Of a stretch of DNA of 64,000 bases, positions 1,781-48,398 are shown piece after piece. Made by a program: the position numbers and the translations under genes. Origin of the DNA: Planctomycetota bacterium. Its GTDB lineage: Bacteria; Planctomycetota; Phycisphaerae; WQYP01. The stretch is taken from assembly GCA_021805985.1 (NCBI GenBank), contig JAJZDN010000008.1, forward strand, positions 26,319 to 90,318, written 5' to 3'. The notes beneath the pieces were generated by a model. That model was not told the DNA's origin. It saw only the letters and a list, made by a program, of their open reading frames with translations, and did not search any database. Every line of letters begins with the position of its first letter. Within the stretch, counting starts at the first letter, position 1.

Positions 1781-3409
1781 ATGACACGTTTAGCCGTTTT
1801 AGTCGCGAGCTTGCCTCTTATGTTGTTCACCTTAACAGCGCACGCTGGAGTGCTTGGAGGGGTGCATGCCGATGGCTACATGTTTGTGCCCGTCAAGCGA
1901 GTGCCTAAAAATTATGATGCGGGCTTCTCCATGTATTCCGCGGCCTGGCCGCTCCTGCTGCGGTACCCGGGAAATCAATTTCAGTCAGGGCTTTTCGGTA
2001 CATGGATGGCGGCCCAGTACACAGGCAAGCCCCCGCAACATTTATATTCGGACATTGAAGGGGGCCTTGGCTGGTGGCGCGGAACCCGATTTCCCACTGC
2101 GGCCCCGAAGTTTCACCTGGGGGGTGTGGCGTTTAATTTTCAGTTCATAGCGGACGCACCGGGCAATGGCAAAGGCAGTTGGAAGCACCCGCGTGGGGCT
2201 TACGCCGTGGCCCAGCTTAGTCCTTGGTTGCTCTTTCCGCCTGATGGTCTCACACTGAAACCCGGCGTCAACGGTCAACTCTTTGGGTACGGCTATCTGC
2301 CGCTACCGCTTACCGATCCGCAAGCAACCACCGACGGCAAAAACATCCCCATGGGCAATCACTGCTGGACATTGTTTCTCAACACGCGTAACTTCAAGGG
2401 GCCAGTCTGTTTTTTTACGCCGTACTTCTGGAACCGCCCTGCCGTAAGGCACGCGCGCCTCGTTGGCAAATTGCTCGACTCGCGATGGTCCATTGCCAAT
2501 AAGGCCTTTCAGATGGAAACACAGTATCTTCCCGCCGCCATCAGCCAGATAAGTACGGGCACCTACGCGCGTCTGGGGCAGGTGTCCTTCCCAGCCGATC
2601 GCCAAGGGAACGCCGTCCTGCTCAACCGACTGACCAGTTACAGTCGTCAAGCGCTTTGGGACCCCGTAAAAGCTTGGTTTAACGGCGGCCCAGCGGTGAG
2701 CGGCAGGCTCCCCTCGTCGCAGGGCTTTGTGCAGCAGTTTAAGCCCCATTTGTGGTCTACTTGGAAGATCTATGCCAATAGTACGTCCAAGACGCAGCAC
2801 GCCGGACTGCCTTGGACACTTTTCGCCAAAGCATTTCTTCCCGACCCGGCGTCTTACGGCTTCACTTGGAACCGGCAGTTGGTGCACGACGGACCCGATG
2901 GAACCCGCGCCTTGTTACCGCGATTTTACCGGCTTGTGCACCGGGGAAAACAGGCCCAATGGCATGCGGTACACGCGGCCGATGTTCCCCCTGCGACTGG
3001 GCTTAAGCGGATCAACTTTTATCCATCGCGGAGGCGGCCGCCCCAACCCTACACCACGCCGGACGGCCCCAACAGTTCCTACAAAAAGCCCGGCCCGGCG
3101 GCCGGACCATTTTACGCTCATTTAAGCGATGGCTCGCTGGTAACCTATTACTGGTATCGCTTTGAAGACCAGCCCGCTCTGCTGCACGCCGACCTCAGCC
3201 AGGCCGAACGCAACAAAATGCAGAAGCGAGCGGAAATGCTGCAGCGCCATTGGACAAAAAATCGCCAGTACCTGCCGCCGCCAACCCGAGGATCGCTGGC
3301 TTATCTCGACCCGGCACAACTCGTCACGCCGCCCAAACGTCTGGCCATCGGCTATGTGCCGATTGTCACCCGCCAGCAGTGGGCGGCCTCTCGTGGCACC
3401 GGGAAATAA
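1781..3409 (+). CDS. Secreted hypothetical protein
   Basis: GGAGG RBS 9 nt upstream and a signal peptide MTRLAVLVASLPLMLFTLTAHA. The composition is rich in W, Y, G and P. No recognisable catalytic motifs. Confidence 0.5.
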   Translation: MTRLAVLVASLPLMLFTLTAHAGVLGGVHADGYMFVPVKRVPKNYDAGFSMYSAAWPLLLRYPGNQFQSGLFGTWMAAQYTGKPPQHLYSDIEGGLGWWRGTRFPTAAPKFHLGGVAFNFQFIADAPGNGKGSWKHPRGAYAVAQLSPWLLFPPDGLTLKPGVNGQLFGYGYLPLPLTDPQATTDGKNIPMGNHCWTLFLNTRNFKGPVCFFTPYFWNRPAVRHARLVGKLLDSRWSIANKAFQMETQYLPAAISQISTGTYARLGQVSFPADRQGNAVLLNRLTSYSRQALWDPVKAWFNGGPAVSGRLPSSQGFVQQFKPHLWSTWKIYANSTSKTQHAGLPWTLFAKAFLPDPASYGFTWNRQLVHDGPDGTRALLPRFYRLVHRGKQAQWHAVHAADVPPATGLKRINFYPSRRRPPQPYTTPDGPNSSYKKPGPAAGPFYAHLSDGSLVTYYWYRFEDQPALLHADLSQAERNKMQKRAEMLQRHWTKNRQYLPPPTRGSLAYLDPAQLVTPPKRLAIGYVPIVTRQQWAASRGTGK

Positions 3410-3439
3410 GCGCGATTGCTGCCCCATTTTTTATGACCG

Positions 3440-3485
3440 ACACCGTTTCCATAACGGTGTTCCGCTCTTAAAAGAGCGGCAAATT
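3440..3485. terminator. Two adjacent hairpins between convergent genes (possible bidirectional terminator)
   Basis: acaccgtt-tcca-taacggtgt and ccgctctt-aa-aagagcgg stem-loops. There is no strong U-tract. Confidence 0.25.
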
Positions 3486-3621
3486 TGCGGGCGTGTCATT
3501 GAAAAAAGGTATCAGGTAACTTTTTTTCTAGCGCCGTCGCAACCCGGCGATTACTCGGACAGGCTCCTAGCTGATAGCAAACAATTATTAACGTTGAGTG
3601 GATAATTCGTGCCTGACACCT

Positions 3622-4953
3622 TTATTTGCGGTTAACCCAGCCCGCATCCGGGGGCGGAGCGGGAAATGTTACATCACCGCTGGCACCGGCCCGCACTTTG
3701 GTATGCGGGGAATTATTAATCCGGACGGTGAGGGTAAAAGAAAGCGCCGGGAGACTCAGGTATAAAAGAATGCGCGTCAGGGTGAACCGTTGCGGCGGTT
3801 CGGGTTTTGGAAAATCCGGCGTAATACCGGCCGCGACGAGCCGGTCGTATAGATTCGGGTGTATGCGCCGGCGGCCCGACATCACGGCAGGCATCTGATT
3901 GACCTCGTAGATGCGCTGCAAGGCCTGCGCATAGGCGGCCTCCTTCCCCTCGTTTGCAGAGGCAATCGCATCCGCCCGGACTTCCATGCGCCGTCCCATC
4001 CTCCGAAAACGTGTCCGCATGATCAGTGTTACCGCCAAGAGACCGCCGCCCCACATCAGGCCATTTCCGCCGGTCGCGATCAGCGGCCGGATGAAAACCA
4101 ACGGGAAAAGGATCATGGGCTGCATCAGTCTCAGAAACAACACGCGGCGCGGCTCGGTTAAATGCGCTAATTCATGTCCAGTCACAGCGGCGATTTGCGC
4201 ATCCGAGAGGTGTCGCAGCAACCCCTGCGAAAAAATAAGTTCACGGCTAAGGGGCAATGCATACGCATTGGCAAATGCGCCGGGCAACACCCAGATGCGA
4301 CGTGGCTGCACATCCATGCGCCCGGCGACTTCAGCGACAATTGCCGCAAGCCGATCATCAGCCGGTCTAAGTAGCCCTGACAGAGAGAAAAATCGTATCA
4401 TTCCGCCCAGCCGCAAGGTCGCAAGAAGCAAAAAAAGCAGCCCGGCGATCAGCCACGTTTCAGCGCCAAAGTTTTTCGGCATCGTCACGATTGCCCACAA
4501 AAACAGGGCAAAGGGTATTACCCTCCCCAGTAGAATCATGAGCCAGGAAGTTAACCACTCCCTGAAAGTGGTTTCGGGGAATATTTCTCGGGTCAGCCAG
4601 TAGGATCCCAACCACGCCGCTAACAGGCTCGATCCGGCAGGTTCCCACGCCGGAACTGAAAGATGCAGTGTGCGTGCAAGCAGGTAGATGTCTACTGGAA
4701 GGAACACCATACTTAACCCGGCCGTGACACGGATTGGATACAGCAACCGTGCACGCAATGTCCAATGTTGCCCGCTGCTGCGTCGCCACGCGGACAATCC
4801 AAAATAATTGACTGCGCGTATAAGCAACAGCGTTGCAAAAAACGAAAAGACGACCAGAATTAACGTCAGCATACTGCCCATCATATTCAAGAAATGGTAA
4901 CCGTTCACAGCCTTCCAGCCGGCAAGGCACACCCTGAACGTCACCACGAGCAA
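3622..4953 (-). CDS. Membrane M56/M48-family zinc metalloprotease (BlaR1/HtpX-like signal-transducer protease)
   Basis: Multiple TM helices and a GHELAHL HEXXH zinc site placed as in BlaR1/MecR1 M56 peptidases. No adjacent BlaI-like repressor was found. Confidence 0.6.
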   Translation of the reverse strand: MLVVTFRVCLAGWKAVNGYHFLNMMGSMLTLILVVFSFFATLLLIRAVNYFGLSAWRRSSGQHWTLRARLLYPIRVTAGLSMVFLPVDIYLLARTLHLSVPAWEPAGSSLLAAWLGSYWLTREIFPETTFREWLTSWLMILLGRVIPFALFLWAIVTMPKNFGAETWLIAGLLFLLLATLRLGGMIRFFSLSGLLRPADDRLAAIVAEVAGRMDVQPRRIWVLPGAFANAYALPLSRELIFSQGLLRHLSDAQIAAVTGHELAHLTEPRRVLFLRLMQPMILFPLVFIRPLIATGGNGLMWGGGLLAVTLIMRTRFRRMGRRMEVRADAIASANEGKEAAYAQALQRIYEVNQMPAVMSGRRRIHPNLYDRLVAAGITPDFPKPEPPQRFTLTRILLYLSLPALSFTLTVRINNSPHTKVRAGASGDVTFPAPPPDAGWVNRK

Positions 4954-40317: not shown

Positions 40318-41823
40318 ATGAACGTTGTTTTGGCATTGGATCAGGGAACCAGCAGTTCACGAGCCATTGTGTTTGATCACACTGGGCGATCCCTGGCGAT
40401 GGCGCAATTGGAACTTGGGGCGATATTTCCCCGCCCCGGCTCCGTAGAACAAGACCCCCAGGTAATTTGGCGCACGCAACTTGCCACAGCACAACAAGTC
40501 ATAAGGCAGGCGGGTATTGCAGCTACGGATATTGCCGCTATCGGCATAACCAATCAGCGGGAAACCACATTGGTATGGAACCGGAAGACCGGGGAACCCA
40601 TTTATAATGCCATCGTCTGGCAGGACCGTCGGACCGCTGATTTTTGCGAGACGCTTAAATCTGCAGGGCATGGGGAAATGGTAGCTCGCAAGACCGGCCT
40701 GATTATTGACCCTTATTTTTCTGCCAGTAAGCTGCGCTGGATTTTGGACCAAGTCCCCGGTGCCCGGGAAATGGCCGCCCATGGTGACTTGGCGTTTGGC
40801 ACAGTGGATTCTTGGTTGCTTTGGAAACTTACAGCCGGCGCGGTTCATGCGACAGATATTTCCAATGCGTCCCGCACCATGCTTTTTAACATCCACACTG
40901 GCCAATGGGATCCTGAACTTCTGGCTTTAATGGATATCCCAAGGTCTATGTTACTTGAAGTGCGGTCCTCCTCTGAACTATATGGTCACACTTCGGGGGA
41001 TTTACTGGGGGCGCGGGTGCCGATCTCGGGTGTGGCCGGGGATCAACAGGCTGCGTTATTCGGGCAAACCTGTTTTACCCCCGGGTCGGTAAAAAATACC
41101 TACGGCACCGGATGCTTTATGCTCATGAACGTAGGAGAAAAGCCGGCAGAATCCGCGAATAAGCTTTTAAGCACTGTTGCCTGGAGGCTGGGTGGCACCA
41201 CCCATTACGCCTTGGAGGGAAGCGTGTTTATCGGCGGGGCGGTGGTGCAATGGCTCCGCGATTCACTGGGGATTATTCAAAGCAGCAAAGACATTGAAGC
41301 CCTGGCGGCCAGCGTAGAGAATTCCGGCGGCGTATATTTTGTTCCCGCGTTCGCGGGGCTGGGTTCGCCCTATTGGGATGCCTATGCGCGGGGATCCATT
41401 TCCGGTCTGACGCGCGGAACAACTGCCGCACACATTGCCCGGGCGGCGTTGGAAAGTATTGCCCATCAGACTGCGGACTTGCTGGAGTGCATGCAAAAGG
41501 ATTACGGACAGCCGGTGGCTGAAATGCGTGTAGACGGCGGTGCGGCGGAAAACAATTTGCTGATGCAAATTCAGGCTGATTTACTGGGCGTTCCAGTGTT
41601 GCGGCCGCAAGTCATACAGACCACAGCTCTGGGAGCTGCGTATCTGGCGGGTTTGGCGGTGAAGTATTGGGAAACACCGGCCGATGTCGCCCGCCACTGG
41701 GTTGTCGAGCGCATTTTTGAACCGCGGATGAGCCGTGATGAAGCACATTTCCGCCGACAGCGGTGGAAGAAGGCCGTTGCACGATCCCAGGACTGGGAAG
41801 AGCATAGCGAAGCGCTTAATTAA
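40318..41823 (+). CDS. glpK: Glycerol kinase
   Basis: N-terminal [28 protein letters not shown] and the FGGY-family C-terminal domain. Confidence 0.9.
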
Positions 41824-41842
41824 CGCGCGGTGGAACATATCA

Positions 41843-43387
41843 ATGAATAGAGATATATCCTTACAGCGAATAATTGACCGGCGTGAATCCTGGGACATTG
41901 CAGTCATTGGCGGCGGAGCCACGGGCGTGGGCATTGCGGTTGATGCGGCGGCCCGCGGATACGCGGTTTGCCTGCTGGAACAAAGCGATTTTGGCAAAGC
42001 CACCAGCAGCCGCTCCACCAAACTGGTGCATGGCGGCGTGCGTTATTTGCAGCAGGGCAATATTGCTTTGGTCACAGAAGCCTTGCATGAACGTGGAATC
42101 CTTAAAAATAACGCCCCGCATCTGGTGCATGATCTGGCTTTTGTCGTGCCGAATTATCAATGGTGGGAAGCTTCGTTTTACGGGGTCGGATTAAAAGCCT
42201 ATGACCTGCTGGCCGGGAAATATGGATTTGGAAAATCCCGGCATTTGAGCCGCCAGGAAGTGCTGCACTATATTCCCACGCTGAAAACCGACGGCCTGCG
42301 GGGTGGCGTGCTGTATCATGACGGACAATTTGATGATGCGCGGCTGCTGATAGATTTAGCCGCCACCGCCACGCGGATTGGCGCCGCACTTTTGAATTAT
42401 GCCCCCGTCACACACCTGGTGCATGATGCCACAGGACATCTGCACGCGCTGCGGTTTACCGACAGCGAAACTGGGCAGACACATACTGTTGCGGCACGAT
42501 GTGTGATTAACGCAACGGGGGCCTTCAGCGATCAGTTGCGGCACATGGATAACCCGGCCGCGGCCGGTATTATTGCTCCCAGCCAAGGCGTACATTTGGT
42601 GCTGGAAAGAAGTTTTCTTTCCGGAGACACCGCCATGATGGTGCCGCATACCAGCGATGGGCGCGTGTTGTTTGCTATACCCTGGCACAATCGCACACTG
42701 TTAGGCACAACCGATACCGCGCTGGAAAACGTAGCCTTGGAACCTGTACCGCAGGATCAGGAAATTGATTTTATTCTTGAAACCGCCGGGCAATATCTAG
42801 CGAGAAAGCCCAAACGCAGCGACATTGTCAGTATGTTCGCGGGGATTCGCCCCCTGGTTAAAGCACCGCAGAATACCGCTACCGCGGCATTGTCCCGTGA
42901 TCATACCATTGACATCAGCAGCAGCGGATTATTGACCATTGCCGGCGGAAAATGGACAACCTATCGGCGCATGGCAGAAGATGCGGTCGATCATGCCGCC
43001 AGCATCGGCTCTTTGCCCGTGCGGGACTGTATCACGCGCAGCTTAAAAATATCCGGTTCTCAAAATTCCGACGCAATTGAAACGAGTCCCAGCAAGCGCA
43101 CGGCCGGGTCCGCGAGGCTGACGCAAAGCGATCTTACAACCGGGCCATGCGGGATTACCGCCGAGGAAATCATCTATTTCATCCGCCACGAAATGGCCCG
43201 CACAATTGACGACATCCTGGCCCGTCGCACGCGCCTCCTGTTTCTGGACGCCCGCGTTGCAATCGCAGCAGCACCCCATGTCGCCCAAACGATGGCCACA
43301 GAATTAGCCCGCGACAAACCCTGGATCGAAAACCAAGTCCTTGAATTCAACGCCATAGCCAAACACTACCTGCCGCCAGTGACATGA
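41843..43387 (+). CDS. glpD: FAD-dependent glycerol-3-phosphate dehydrogenase
   Basis: WDIAVIGGGATGVGIAVDAAARG FAD motif, then TSSRSTKLVHGGVRYL. Adjacent to glpK. Confidence 0.85.
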   Translation: MNRDISLQRIIDRRESWDIAVIGGGATGVGIAVDAAARGYAVCLLEQSDFGKATSSRSTKLVHGGVRYLQQGNIALVTEALHERGILKNNAPHLVHDLAFVVPNYQWWEASFYGVGLKAYDLLAGKYGFGKSRHLSRQEVLHYIPTLKTDGLRGGVLYHDGQFDDARLLIDLAATATRIGAALLNYAPVTHLVHDATGHLHALRFTDSETGQTHTVAARCVINATGAFSDQLRHMDNPAAAGIIAPSQGVHLVLERSFLSGDTAMMVPHTSDGRVLFAIPWHNRTLLGTTDTALENVALEPVPQDQEIDFILETAGQYLARKPKRSDIVSMFAGIRPLVKAPQNTATAALSRDHTIDISSSGLLTIAGGKWTTYRRMAEDAVDHAASIGSLPVRDCITRSLKISGSQNSDAIETSPSKRTAGSARLTQSDLTTGPCGITAEEIIYFIRHEMARTIDDILARRTRLLFLDARVAIAAAPHVAQTMATELARDKPWIENQVLEFNAIAKHYLPPVT

Positions 43388-43448: not shown

Positions 43449-44723
43449 TCACGTCTCGGCCACGTGCGCGATGCGGTGGTTTGTGATCTGGTATTTCACA
43501 ACAAAGGGGGAGACTTCAAAATCCGCCGCAATGTCCGAAATTTCCTCAGCCGTGACTTCGGTGGAGGTAATTCGAGACTCAATTACATGGGCGGGAATTA
43601 GAAACTCGGCCGCGAAGGACCGCTCCCTCTGCTGGCGTTCTGTTATGGCCGAGGTAAGAAGATAAAGTGAACGATCCCCGCCATAAAACAGGCTCATCAA
43701 CGAACGTGCAATCAAAAATCGAAACGATTCTGGTCGCCTTTTGAAGGCAAAACACCGGATCACTCGCTGGTCCAGGCCGACAAGGCCTTCTATGCTCGGC
43801 ATCGGTGTCGGTGCGGCGGCAACTGGCGAGGTGAATTGAAATACATCCGGGGCTTTTTGCTCATCCAGATTTAGCTGCGCGCGTGCATGTTGTGCCAAGG
43901 CGTACCCTTGCTCCCAAGGCGCAGCGGTCTCCGCGACCTGTGGTACATCGTATAAACCTTTGAACGGATGCTGACCCAAGATGGACGTCCCCAAGGCGTC
44001 CAGTCCGCTTGCAAGCCATCGCTCGACCTCCGGAAGTCGTTCAATAGTTGATGCACAAAACGTATCCGCACGAAGGCCTTGGGGGATTGCCGTCCATACA
44101 TTCATAATTGTTTCAGCTGCGTTTGCGGGAAGCGCGTAGGGATCGAGTCCAAGCCATGCCGCCGCGCGGCAGAATTCGGCCTCTTCCTGGTCCGCATTTA
44201 TTATGGCTTCCCAGTTTTGTGTCAGGGTGCCAGCGGAAAGTTTTAACGATTCCAATCGGCCCAACACGGCCTCGATAAGCTCGGCCGCTTTGGCGCGGAA
44301 TAACTCCGTCGTAACCCGCTGCTCACCAGTGCTTATAAACTCAATATCCTGATGCTCGCTTTGGAATGATGCCCACGTTAAATTCAGTTTATCACCTTCC
44401 GGATAAATGCGCAGTCTGGGAAGGGGAAACCCTTCCTGCGCGGAATATAAGCAATGACGCACATCTACACCGTCAGCGATAGCCGTTTTGCCAGGCGCGT
44501 GTACTTCGTTAAACAGACACCACCAATTCGCAACCAGCCATTCCGCCAATGGGTACAGCGGCACTCGGATATAATCGCGCGTGGTGCGGGCGCGTTTGTC
44601 AAGAACCTTAGTGATAATCTGTTGGCCGCAAGTTAAGGTAAAATCCGCAAATGTTCCATTAATTTCGGGCGCATCGTTACACCCAAAATCCAACCATGTA
44701 TATTGTATGTCGAATTCACTCAC
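43449..44723 (-). CDS. Hypothetical protein whose C-terminal domain is ImmA/IrrE-like (COG2856) but lacks the HEXXH site
   Basis: The C-terminal region ...FLIARSLMSLFYG...ERQQRERSFAAEFLIPAHVI aligns with the ImmA/IrrE pattern RFTLAHELGH...E.EAN.FAAELLMP. The HELGH is replaced by RSLMS. The N-terminal roughly 330 aa are unrecognised. Confidence 0.45.
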   Translation of the reverse strand: MSEFDIQYTWLDFGCNDAPEINGTFADFTLTCGQQIITKVLDKRARTTRDYIRVPLYPLAEWLVANWWCLFNEVHAPGKTAIADGVDVRHCLYSAQEGFPLPRLRIYPEGDKLNLTWASFQSEHQDIEFISTGEQRVTTELFRAKAAELIEAVLGRLESLKLSAGTLTQNWEAIINADQEEAEFCRAAAWLGLDPYALPANAAETIMNVWTAIPQGLRADTFCASTIERLPEVERWLASGLDALGTSILGQHPFKGLYDVPQVAETAAPWEQGYALAQHARAQLNLDEQKAPDVFQFTSPVAAAPTPMPSIEGLVGLDQRVIRCFAFKRRPESFRFLIARSLMSLFYGGDRSLYLLTSAITERQQRERSFAAEFLIPAHVIESRITSTEVTAEEISDIAADFEVSPFVVKYQITNHRIAHVAET

Positions 44724-45024
44724 GGCAATCCTCGCACGCGTTCATCGGAATCCAGCGGGTAACTCATGTGCTACCCACACAACGAACTTGAGCACTGACC
44801 GCAGCGATATGGATACCCGCCGGAGCAGGGCCGATGCCTCTATTCTTGGCTGTTCTTGTGTATTTCGGCGGTTTCATAACACTGTTATTCTACGGGATTC
44901 GCCCTGCCGTCGCCATTGTATGACAAGCGTGGACGATTCAGGCAAGGTACTCTTCGTACAGCATGGAAATGAAAGACGCCTCGGTTATGCTTAAAAAAGT
45001 TCGCGCGCTGAAGGAGTTGCTGAA

Positions 45025-45297
45025 ATGACAAAGACTCAAGCACAATCTCTTAAAAAAGCCCTCGAAAAGAAATTTGACGGGCTGGCCGAATTCGAGCTGG
45101 CCGGAAGGTCCGGGCGCTACCGTTTTGCGGTCAAATCTAAGAAGTTTGATAAAATGCCACAGATGAAGCGGCAGGATGAGGCGTGGAAAATTGTCGACAA
45201 AGTGCTCGAACGCGATGCAATACTGGACATTTCTCTAATACTTACCTTTGCGCCCCGGGACATCGCGACGGGAAAAATCCGGGGCCATGCAACATAA
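45025..45297 (+). CDS. Small protein, weakly BolA-like
   Basis: RFAVKSKKFDKMPQMKRQDEAWKIVDKVL...ILDISLILTFAPRD loosely fits the BolA motif HF.V.VVS..F.G...V.RHR.V...L...IHAL.I...TP.E. Confidence 0.35.
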   Translation: MTKTQAQSLKKALEKKFDGLAEFELAGRSGRYRFAVKSKKFDKMPQMKRQDEAWKIVDKVLERDAILDISLILTFAPRDIATGKIRGHAT

Positions 45298-45655: not shown

Positions 45656-47782
45656 TCAACGGCCGGGCACGTGGTCAATCACGATGCCGGGGGCGGTGGG
45701 TTGGGCGATGGGGGTTAGGCCGAGGGACTGGAGCTTGGCGATGTTTTGGGGGGTGATGATGGGATCAAAGCCGTAGGTTTTTCGCAGGCGAATTATTTCC
45801 GGCCAATCAATGATCAGGTAATTCACGTGATGGCTTTGCAGATAACGCAATGCCGCAGCTGCGCCGCCGTGGTGAAAGGCTCTTGCCAGCTTGTTGCGAT
45901 CAAAGACGGTGGCATAAATAACGTGCCCGCGGATGTATAGCGGGGTGCTTAAACCTTCCAGATAATAGGTGGTACGTGACGTAAATTGCCCCGGCGGCGG
46001 GGGGGATGAAAGCCAGTCTTCGGGCAGGCTGATCGCCGCACCGATGGGCGGCGGCATTTGGGCATGGATGGGGCCAAATAAGAGTCCGGCTTCGGGTCTA
46101 AGCAGCAAAGCACAGCCGACGGCCTGCACCGTAAGCCCTGCAGTAGCCGCGGTGAAATAAGCCGGCAGCAGATCGGCGGCCATTCCCAGCATCCACGCCA
46201 AAGGAATAACGGCAGGTAATAAAAATCGGGCCTGCAATTGGGTGCAGGTTATCCAGGCAAGCATTTGCACCAGCAGGCACAGGGCCAGAAGCCACGCCTG
46301 AATTCCGGTAAATAGTGCCAGGGCAACGGCGGGGATCAGCACCAGCCAGAGCGGGCCGAACCTTAGAAGCCAAGGGGTTTGCGGACCGGGAAAGCCGGGT
46401 TTGGCGTCCAAGGCATCGAGCCAGGCGGCGATTCCCGGCGACCATTGGCGATTGAGAATTGATTGATCAACCAAGGCGTGTAAATGTCCCGCTACGCCAG
46501 CATCCCGCGCCGGCGGCCGGTGGCCCCGGTCGAAGCGCAAGGCAATGGATTTTCTCCAATGGCCGCGACCAAGGGTACCGGTAAAAATGGGAAATATGGG
46601 GTTGCCCAAGCTGCGGCTAGTGTGGGTGGCGGCCATGGAACGGACCATCCAGGGGCTGTAGATAAGTAATGCAGTAACTGTAACAATCGCCAATTGACGA
46701 AAATTGCGGCGTGCCAGAAGAATGGCGGCAATGGGCAGTGCCACCATAACGCCGGCGGTCATTTTGGTTCCCACGGCCAAACCCAGCAACACGCCCAGGA
46801 TCAGCCACTCCGGCCAGCGCGTTGCCACGCACGCCAAGGTGACCGCCAACACACCGTACAGCAATACCGCACCGTCGTTGTAAGCCAGCGATCCTACAAC
46901 CAGCGTCCAAGGGGTGGCCAGTACCACCAGGGCGGCAATAACGCGGCCTGGGGCTTTCAGATTCAGCGGCGCAAAAAGTATTGCCGCAACCGCCAAAAGT
47001 GTCACCACGGCATGTAATATTTGCGATCCAAATACGAGAGCATAAATATATCCCGCCCCAATCGCCGATTGGGCCACGGCGGCGAGAAGCAGATACAGCA
47101 TCTCCATATTTAATGGCATATATGAGTATATATTTCCATGCACTGGTGCCGTGCTGTGCATAGCCAGGAATTGCCGGGGTAATTGCAAATGGTATTCCAG
47201 CACATCAAAGCCGTTGCCTTCGGTGTGCCACAATGTTCCGGCGGGAAAGCACACTGCGATAAGCAATACAGCCAGAGGAATACAGGCCAGTAAAATCAGG
47301 GCGTGTCGGCGTTGCAGCGGACGCTGGAGAAATTCCAACTGAGATTTCAATTGGCGCGCAAATGGATATCCGGCGGCCGCTGAGCCGATCAACAGGATAC
47401 CGCCGGCCGGCCCGGAAATCAGGCCGCAACTTCCCAAGGCCAGCGCAGCTAAGCTCAAGGCACCCATGCCCAGCGCAGCCGCCATAACCAGGCGAAAGCC
47501 CAGAGGCCACGGCGAGAGCTGCATCATGGGCAGGTTGCGCAGGGGATGAGTCAGGGCCAAGCCCAGCAAAAGGGCTGGTAGAATAATAATGCCAGCCCAG
47601 GCGGCGTTACACAGGGTTGCCAATACCGCCGGCATTTGCGATCCGGAAATGAGCAGCATCATCAACAGTGTGGTAATCAGCATTGCCGGCATTAACACCC
47701 AGCGCGGCAGATGATTGCCGCCACCGGACGCGGCAGGGGATGTTCGGCGGTAGGCGATACGTGGCTTCATGACGCAAACCAA
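45656..47782 (-). CDS. Polytopic membrane protein, putative GT-C-fold glycosyltransferase (ArnT/PMT-like)
   Basis: At least 12 TM helices, an FDVLEYH acidic loop motif after early TM helices, and a C-terminal soluble domain. The assignment is tentative. Confidence 0.4.
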   Translation of the reverse strand: MVCVMKPRIAYRRTSPAASGGGNHLPRWVLMPAMLITTLLMMLLISGSQMPAVLATLCNAAWAGIIILPALLLGLALTHPLRNLPMMQLSPWPLGFRLVMAAALGMGALSLAALALGSCGLISGPAGGILLIGSAAAGYPFARQLKSQLEFLQRPLQRRHALILLACIPLAVLLIAVCFPAGTLWHTEGNGFDVLEYHLQLPRQFLAMHSTAPVHGNIYSYMPLNMEMLYLLLAAVAQSAIGAGYIYALVFGSQILHAVVTLLAVAAILFAPLNLKAPGRVIAALVVLATPWTLVVGSLAYNDGAVLLYGVLAVTLACVATRWPEWLILGVLLGLAVGTKMTAGVMVALPIAAILLARRNFRQLAIVTVTALLIYSPWMVRSMAATHTSRSLGNPIFPIFTGTLGRGHWRKSIALRFDRGHRPPARDAGVAGHLHALVDQSILNRQWSPGIAAWLDALDAKPGFPGPQTPWLLRFGPLWLVLIPAVALALFTGIQAWLLALCLLVQMLAWITCTQLQARFLLPAVIPLAWMLGMAADLLPAYFTAATAGLTVQAVGCALLLRPEAGLLFGPIHAQMPPPIGAAISLPEDWLSSPPPPGQFTSRTTYYLEGLSTPLYIRGHVIYATVFDRNKLARAFHHGGAAAALRYLQSHHVNYLIIDWPEIIRLRKTYGFDPIITPQNIAKLQSLGLTPIAQPTAPGIVIDHVPGR

Positions 47783-47852
47783 CTGTCACAACAGGGCGTA
47801 GAGCCAGATCATCAGCGGGCAATCTGACGGCCAACGCCGTAATAGCGCATAC

Positions 47853-48398
47853 TTAAGCCGGCACCGGCTGTTGACTGCAACAGCTTTTGCATTTAGTCGC
47901 GGCTTCCGGAATAGTGTCCAGGCAGAACGCGCATGTTTTTGTCGGTGGTGGCGGCGGCGCGGGCGGTGGTGGCGGCGGGGCTTTTACCAACATCTTAATG
48001 ACGAAAAAACAGACCAGGCCGGTAATGATTAAAGTCAGAAACGTGTTGGCCAGATCGCCAATGAGCAATTTCACCGGCTCCAAAATCACCTGATGCGTTT
48101 TTGGGTCAAGAAGAGGTTTGAACGTCGTGGGATTGAGTTTGGGAACATGGCCAATGGTAATACCCGCCGTGCGCCAGGAGCCATCGGGCAGGAATAAATT
48201 AATGATCGGCATGATCAGGTCAGCGTTGACCTTGCCGACAAACCCGCCAAAGGCACCGCCAATGATGACACCGATCGCCAGCGAAAGCGCATTACCTTGA
48301 AACAGGAATTTTTTGAATTCATGGTGGAATCCCAGGGTCTTTTCTTTCAGCGCCTTATGATCCAGCAATTTTTTGGCGTCAAAATTCATTACGTCCAT
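47853..48398 (-). CDS. mscL: Large-conductance mechanosensitive channel MscL with an extended C-terminal Pro-rich linker and Cys4 zinc ribbon
   Basis: [30 protein letters not shown] matches the MscL TM1 signature. TM2 is followed by [12 protein letters not shown] and CAFC...CKSCC. The start codon is ambiguous between 48389, 48398 and a TTG at 48407. Confidence 0.75.

Follow-up and report, generated by a model that had tools for sequence, protein, structure and literature searches.

The 64,000-nucleotide (nt) stretch of contig JAJZDN010000008.1 from a Planctomycetota bacterium (hereafter, the window) contains an intact open reading frame (ORF) of 424 amino acids (aa) with a GTG start at positions 43449..44723 of the minus strand. 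The product, here called B, has three domains and is a pseudo-M78 antitoxin candidate. An earlier reading of the window from its letters (the original prediction) had described a standalone pseudo-peptidase beside glpKD, and the protein strings that it quoted agree with the translation of 43449..44723. Gene B adjoins glpD on one side; on the other lie the remnant of a second gene, here called A, and a clade-specific 90-aa gene. A database search recovered at least 413 full-length homologs of B, and a structure model of the window protein has a predicted local distance difference test (pLDDT) score of 94. The ratio of nonsynonymous to synonymous divergence (dN/dS) is 0.13 relative to the 96%-identical relative L001. 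Gene B of the window is thus intact, translatable, and under purifying selection.

Domain organization of B

Residues ~1 to 160 of B (44244..44723, minus strand) form a domain made of two successive beta4-alpha units, with a Whirly-like or CdiI-immunity-like fold and the invariant motifs PLYPLAEW..NWW, RH, G98, and P102. Residues ~161 to 265 (43929..44243, minus strand) constitute an all-helical middle domain with the invariants F184-C185 and LGLDPY (191 to 196); this domain yielded only weak helix-turn-helix (HTH)-like matches and is possibly an HTH-like helical bundle. The remainder, residues ~266 to 424 (43452..43928, minus strand), is a degenerate Peptidase_M78 (ImmA/IrrE/CapP) domain. Both the M78 fold and the profile similarity are present there, and Pfam matched residues 331 to 413 to Peptidase_M78 (PF06114) with 22.8 bits and an E value of 8e-5 (curated cutoff, 22).

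The Pfam scan returned no match in the first ~265 residues (i.e., the N-terminal and middle domains) and no DNA-binding profile anywhere in B. No NCBIfam model matched B, and PADLOC v2 gave no full-length defense-system match, only short and weak matches of capP, RmrA, and PDC-M69B over the M78 core. Searches of PDB sequences with B, with the B profile, and with a C-terminal-only B profile found nothing useful. The original prediction had spoken of an unrecognized N-terminal domain of about 330 aa; the lack of a library match is upheld for the N-terminal ~265 residues.

Gene A and its deletion in the window

In both the 96% relative L001 and a 51% relative, B is directly preceded by an intact gene A, which encodes ~130 aa. 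In the closest relatives of the window, the stop codon of A and the start codon of B overlap by 4 nt (GTGA/ATGA), and elsewhere the two genes overlap or closely abut. Alignment to L001 revealed the remains of this gene in the window (44764..44877, minus strand): the remnant begins with an ATG at 44877 and continues for 37 codons (MKPPKYTRTAKNRGIGPAPAGIHIAAVSAQVRCVGST) to a premature stop. Approximately 50 nt of the 3' end of A are also retained, out of frame (44720..44770, minus strand); they include the ribosome-binding site of B (AGGA) and the GTGA that overlaps its start codon.

The gene measures 390 nt in L001 and 158 nt in the window, from which 232 nt are therefore missing. The junction of the deletion maps to approximately 44770/44771, and codons ~37 to 113, including the conserved core, have been lost. 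The size of the deletion was derived from the gene lengths and the alignment to L001, given that a global MAFFT alignment of the region misplaced the gap. An A profile detected nothing in the window. In scans for promoters, terminators, and repeats around the A remnant, no signal on the relevant strand exceeded that expected from shuffled sequence, and no operator was convincing. The window copy of B thus looks standalone because the 232-bp deletion took most of the upstream gene, and what had been called a standalone gene is the downstream gene of a conserved two-gene operon. Judged from sequence, the locus is best read as a decayed module in which B would be an orphan antitoxin candidate.

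Conservation of the A-B pair

Scanning genomes with a B alignment identified 80 loci from more than 15 phyla, including Planctomycetota, Acidobacteriota, Chloroflexota, Proteobacteria, Bacteroidota, Cyanobacteria, and Spirochaetota, with two copies in several genomes. Gene A is located directly upstream of B at nearly all of these loci. A reciprocal scan seeded with A yielded 80 metagenome loci, and B was the next gene in all 78 that had downstream sequence. When the flanking ORFs of ~80 loci were clustered, only A and B were recurrent, the remainder being antisense shadow ORFs or nonrecurrent genes; there was no third conserved gene and no recurring defense gene beside the pair. Pairwise distances of A and B were correlated (r = 0.77; Mantel test, 0/500). 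The XRE-type partner that had been proposed for inspection in relatives does not occur: none of the relatives has an XRE/HTH partner, and no fused XRE domain is detectable by sequence. A and B are a codirectional, tightly linked, and coinherited two-gene module.

Asymmetric decay of the module

The B-seeded set comprised 86 relative loci and the window (87 in total). Both genes are full length at 62 of these, and 19 others retain remnants of A. At 18 loci, a partial A accompanies a full-length B, with 10 keeping only the 3'-terminal ~25 to 35 codons of A and 8 having A split by a frameshift; at 3 loci (the window, L022, and L043), A is undetectable beside a full-length B. A single locus shows the opposite state, a full A with a frameshifted B. 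Three further loci with a nominally partial B contain in-frame insertions, and L002, L005, and L006 are redundant copies where A was unreported. In total, 21 of the 87 loci (about a quarter) combine a full-length B with a truncated, split, or missing A, compared with a split B at about 6 of the 78 A-seeded loci, though B is 3.3 times longer than A; the two sets come from different data sources, and the asymmetry is semiquantitative only.

As additional cases, L171 has a truncated A next to an IS110 transposase and keeps a 3' remnant like that of the window, and L172 has an A with an in-frame stop and an intact B. The truncated-A loci consistently keep the 3' end of A, which suggests that expression signals for B lie there. 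Recurrent loss of A by deletion, nonsense mutation, frameshift, or insertion sequence (IS), with B retained, is as predicted if A is a toxin and B its antitoxin. This pattern is hard to reconcile with the reverse roles (i.e., A as antitoxin and B as toxin).

Two further observations concern the state of the pair. In one B subclade (L037, L040, L044, L064, L069, L082, and L085), A is repeatedly split in two frames, mostly at profile position ~40 to 60, which could reflect independent pseudogenization, a homopolymer error that recurs in long reads, or programmed frameshifting. In L061 (5241..7314), a partial B duplicate (profile positions 3 to 213) immediately precedes an A remnant and a full-length B, which indicates local rearrangement at the module.

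Replacement of the M78 active site

The active site of IrrE consists of His82, Glu83, His86, and Glu113 (PMC12828697). To place these residues on B, segments of IrrE, CapP, and XRE-M78 proteins from the PDB, baited with a generic M78 consensus, were aligned by hhalign to the C-terminal profile of the B family (probability, 82%). The residues R340-S341-L-M-S344 of the window protein (codons 340 to 344; 43692..43706, minus strand) superimpose exactly on H-E-x-x-H in this register, as the original prediction had proposed for RSLMS and HELGH; the family consensus at this site is R-[AGS]-L-F-[ED]. Substitutions were then counted in 139 nonredundant B proteins from the fetched loci, divergent viral copies included. 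The position of IrrE His82 is occupied by Arg340 in 139 of 139 sequences; that of the catalytic Glu83 (position 341) by Ala, Gly, or Ser, with Glu in only 2 sequences; and that of His86 (position 344) mostly by Glu or Asp, with Ser in the clade of the window and Glu, Asp, Ser, or His across the family.

The third zinc ligand is also replaced. In IrrE, Glu113 sits 13 residues before Pro126 (i.e., the Pro of LLMP), and counting 13 residues back from the corresponding Pro377 of B, with residues 362 to 375 forming one continuous helix, leads to Gln364 (43632..43634, minus strand). This position is Gln in 138 of the 139 sequences. The third ligand had been thought to be retained, on account of the Glu of FAAEFL; this residue, Glu373, occupies a different site, which is conserved and is not a ligand position. 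HEXXH was found at the canonical site in none of 120 database homologs and in none of the 139 nonredundant sequences, so its loss is a family trait and not a private mutation of the window copy. The B protein of L082 has an HEXXH string shifted by three residues (R-A-M-H-E-L-L-H at ~351 to 358 of the aligned fragment) and keeps the invariant Arg at the first His position; the shifted string is probably fortuitous.

These results uphold the original prediction of a C-terminal ImmA/IrrE-type domain that is catalytically dead. With substitutions at all four catalytic positions throughout the family, B should be unable to act as a zinc peptidase and is predicted to have no proteolytic activity. 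The residues around the former active site are near-invariant (R340, Q364, R368, E373, Q412, N415, and H416). Since this applies both to the replacement residues and to their neighbors, the site appears to be still under selection. Most likely, the old substrate cleft has been retained to bind either A or a trigger molecule.

Sequence and structural features of A

The A family has the invariant or near-invariant residues Y33, S36, H39, K40, R53, D55, C59, W73, P92-R-Y-V-W96, E105, and R107 and the motif G-x-Y-K-G-Y-P-L. In its fold, one helix packs against an antiparallel sheet of three strands, the last of which is the conserved G-x-Y-K-G-Y-P-L; an extended N-terminal segment carries the invariant Y-x-G-S-x-x-H-K and R-x-D-A-S-x-C-P. 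A Foldseek search of A against the PDB gave nothing significant. The low-scoring structural matches included several CdiA-CTs, ParE, RelE, HigB, PrpT, MqsR, YoeB, and colicin E5, and searches of Pfam, PADLOC, PHROGs, and PDB sequences gave either nothing or chance-level hits (e.g., PqqL, with an E value of 0.01, and Rv1347c, with an E value of 0.23).

An exhaustive profile search recovered 933 representative A clusters at 50% identity. Nearly all of the best 150 of these 933 representatives are stand-alone proteins of ~90 to 250 aa, and the few longer matches among them are frameshift fusions to B or products of miscalled starts. It is plausible that A is a toxin; if so, it is probably a small cytoplasmic one, an RNase of the RelE, BECR, or RNase-toxin type.

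Genomic context and mobility

The pair occurs in a variety of mobile settings. The contexts of three loci (L170 to L172) were read from preannotated contigs, given that the ORF set from high-GC metagenome-assembled genomes (MAGs) was contaminated with shadow ORFs. In L170 (1..11700), the pair lies inside a dense toxin-antitoxin (TA) island containing four or five MNT/HEPN pairs, Phd-PIN, MazE-PIN, HicB-like genes, and further PIN genes; in L171, it is flanked by transposases and a resolvase. In L172 (4934..12298), from a Phycisphaerales MAG, the module and an unknown 479-aa ORF are located between Hen1 and Pnkp. Hen1 and Pnkp are a bacterial RNA-repair gene pair, an intriguing neighborhood if A is an RNase, although this is a single case.

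Six PLSDB plasmids carry B, conjugative plasmids are among the carriers, and plasmid copies occur in cultivable strains of Agrobacterium, Rhizobium, Tistrella, Massilia, and Sphingomonas. Both plasmids that were inspected (i.e., Tistrella pTM2 and Agrobacterium pAt2) have A upstream, and the pAt2 pair is located between two restriction endonucleases and an integrase. Divergent A-B pairs occur on three IMG/VR contigs, of which two have portal or tail genes next to the pair; the INPHARED phage collection contained no match to B. This patchy, mobile, and multicopy distribution is typical of TA or defense cargo.

A functional tie to glpKD is rejected, as the flanking genes are not conserved across the ~80 loci. 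On the Tistrella mobilis plasmid pTM2 (L173; NC_017966.1, 3430..7091), A and B lie directly upstream of glpD, and A is absent from the PLSDB gene table. The presence of glpD beside the pair in both the window and pTM2 is probably a coincidence, because glpD does not recur at the other ~80 loci.

The 90-aa ORF (orf90; 45025..45297, plus strand) is divergent from the A remnant. It had been called BolA-like, and this identity is also rejected: Pfam at E values of up to 10 gave only subthreshold matches to ParE_toxin (E value, 0.012), GvpO, and DUF2264. The gene was found only in the closest relatives of the window (L001 to L003 and L007). Relative to L001, synonymous divergence (dS) is 0.19 to 0.20 in the orf90-A-B segment (~43449..45297) and 0.39 to 0.55 in the flanking glpK, glpD, 704-aa membrane protein, and mscL genes (40318..43387 and 45656..48390). 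A dS about half that of the flanks suggests a recombinational exchange of the segment that is more recent than the divergence of its surroundings. The window region at 45656..47782 (minus strand) encodes a 708-aa multipass membrane protein, which has no Pfam annotation in the L001 gene table (2729..4843).

Discussion

We consider it somewhat probable that B is the neutralizing (antitoxin or immunity-like) half of an undescribed, horizontally mobile two-gene module, of which the window holds an orphan. In intact copies, gene A precedes B, and the stop codon of the one overlaps or closely abuts the start codon of the other. According to this model, A would act as a cytoplasmic, RNase-like toxin, and B would bind and block it. 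The CdiI-like N-terminal domain is a candidate for this task, as CdiI immunity proteins sterically occlude nuclease toxins; the M78 domain would no longer serve as an enzyme but in binding or sensing. In the window, A was destroyed by the frameshifting 232-bp deletion, and B survives.

A literature search found no paper describing the A/B family. B differs from ImmA, IrrE (PprI), and CapP (PF06114; COG2856) in that all four catalytic residues are replaced, with the predicted loss of peptidase function, and in its partner, a ~130-aa non-HTH protein in place of an XRE/HTH repressor or a sequence-detectable fused XRE domain. In addition, its M78 domain is C terminal to two extra domains, and no genes for cyclic-oligonucleotide-based antiphage signaling systems (CBASS), integrative and conjugative elements (ICE), or prophage switches are attached. 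COG2856-containing (Xre) proteins frequently share an operon with RelE and PIN toxins (Makarova 2009, PMC2701414). The three-component TA systems predicted there (e.g., Rv2515c type) follow the same operon logic, i.e., a COG2856-fold protein with a small RelE-class-like protein, and a patchy, mobile spread is common to both. However, the Xre-COG2856 systems keep HEXXH and a recognizable Xre HTH, for which repressor cleavage has been proposed, whereas B has a dead peptidase, no HTH by sequence, and an added immunity-like domain. Since the peptidase is dead, neutralization by B would have to be nonproteolytic.

Other parallels come from polymorphic toxins and from toxin-first TA systems. The best structural matches of A, at low scores, are RNase toxin domains of the CdiA-CT/CdiI and LXG/Maf pairs (e.g., YxiD-CT/YxxD, MafB2-CT/MafI2, ECL CdiA-CT/CdiI, and Imm23); the N-terminal domain of B in turn resembles the CdiI and Imm23 immunity folds, and we propose a similar 1:1 steric neutralization. 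In higBA, mqsRA, and hicAB, the toxin gene is upstream and translationally coupled to a larger antitoxin gene, and orphan antitoxins are left after toxin loss, features that the A-B pair would share; unlike these type II systems, with which A and B share no sequence homology, B has no detectable DNA-binding domain. We rate the module as a putative type II-like TA system built from new parts.

Several points weigh against such a role. Pfam, PADLOC, NCBIfam, and PHROGs contain no toxin profile that matches A. The top 150 of the 933 representatives included no case in which A forms the C-terminal end of a large polymorphic toxin, so this independent check lent the toxin reading no support. The binding of A by B is something that we infer. 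B has stayed intact and constrained after the loss of A in the window, so it could have a function independent of A. As for the decay asymmetry, which is a comparison between differently sourced sets, some of the frameshifted A genes from long-read MAGs may be assembly errors, and the A-seeded loci with a split B have an intact A beside it.

The architecture of A as effector and B as inhibitor would be the same if the pair were not a housekeeping addiction module but an anti-phage abortive-infection or defense system, with another role and trigger. B would then be a sensor whose M78 or CdiI-like domain recognizes a phage product or a DNA-damage signal (single-stranded DNA [ssDNA]) and subsequently releases or activates A. 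We think this rather unlikely, given that PADLOC v2 returned only the short matches described above, defense genes do not recur beside the pair, and the window copy is located among metabolic genes. An unlikely extension is that the dead M78 domain is a signal receptor that releases a new RNase toxin from the CdiI-like domain, representing a phage-defense or stress-triggered class. The receptor would still recognize either the ancestral cue (ssDNA or DNA damage, as in CapP and IrrE) or the N-terminal segment of A as a pseudosubstrate, and B would unite in one polypeptide an immunity-type inhibitor and the allosteric switch, derived from a protease, that controls it.

Two other explanations make B the principal protein. 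It might be a noncatalytic regulator, ligand sensor, or scaffold similar to the COG2856-like core of Mycobacterium tuberculosis PrpR, with A as a nontoxic accessory or modulator, and the deletion in the window would amount to the loss of a dispensable cofactor. PrpR, a transcription factor, has an HTH at its N terminus and binds cofactors; unlike B, it (PDB 6d2s) has neither a small toxin-like partner nor a CdiI-like domain. The strict co-occurrence and codivergence of A and B make this quite unlikely, as do the overlapping or abutting genes, the multicopy patchy spread, and the TA-island, plasmid, and phage contexts, which are untypical of housekeeping regulators; B also shows no DNA-binding profile, and the flanking genes that might be its targets are not conserved. 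The phrase "sensor or scaffold" in the original prediction was too vague, and the evidence points to a toxin-neutralizing (antitoxin or immunity) role. Alternatively, the roles might be reversed, or B might still be an enzyme with a noncanonical site formed by Arg340, Glu344, Gln364, and His416 and with A as its inhibitor or substrate. The near-invariance of the residues replacing the zinc site, which indicates a site under selection, is consistent with this, and a small upstream antitoxin gene followed by a larger downstream toxin gene is the commoner order in type II TA systems. Nevertheless, the repeated destruction of an antitoxin A beside an intact B should result in lethality or in the decay of B, and the opposite is seen; we know of no metallopeptidase that works once its His, Glu, and Glu are exchanged for Arg, Ala, and Gln, as expected from zincin chemistry; and the N-terminal domain of B resembles immunity proteins, not toxins. 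We therefore regard this explanation as highly improbable.

Neither A nor the first ~265 residues of B are represented in Pfam, NCBIfam, PADLOC, or PHROGs. In public databases, B is labeled "ImmA/IrrE family metallo-endopeptidase" or "hypothetical protein," and A is labeled "hypothetical protein" or left unannotated; the metallo-endopeptidase label misleads the inference of repressor-cleavage switches from members of the B family. The plasmid copies in cultivable strains make the module directly testable. In the window, the locus represents a decayed module with an orphan gene rather than a glycerol-linked regulator. If the TA reading is true, the module would represent a new toxin family and an unusual antitoxin architecture, in which an immunity fold is combined with a pseudoprotease, and would show how a domain of protease origin can be reused for binding or sensing.

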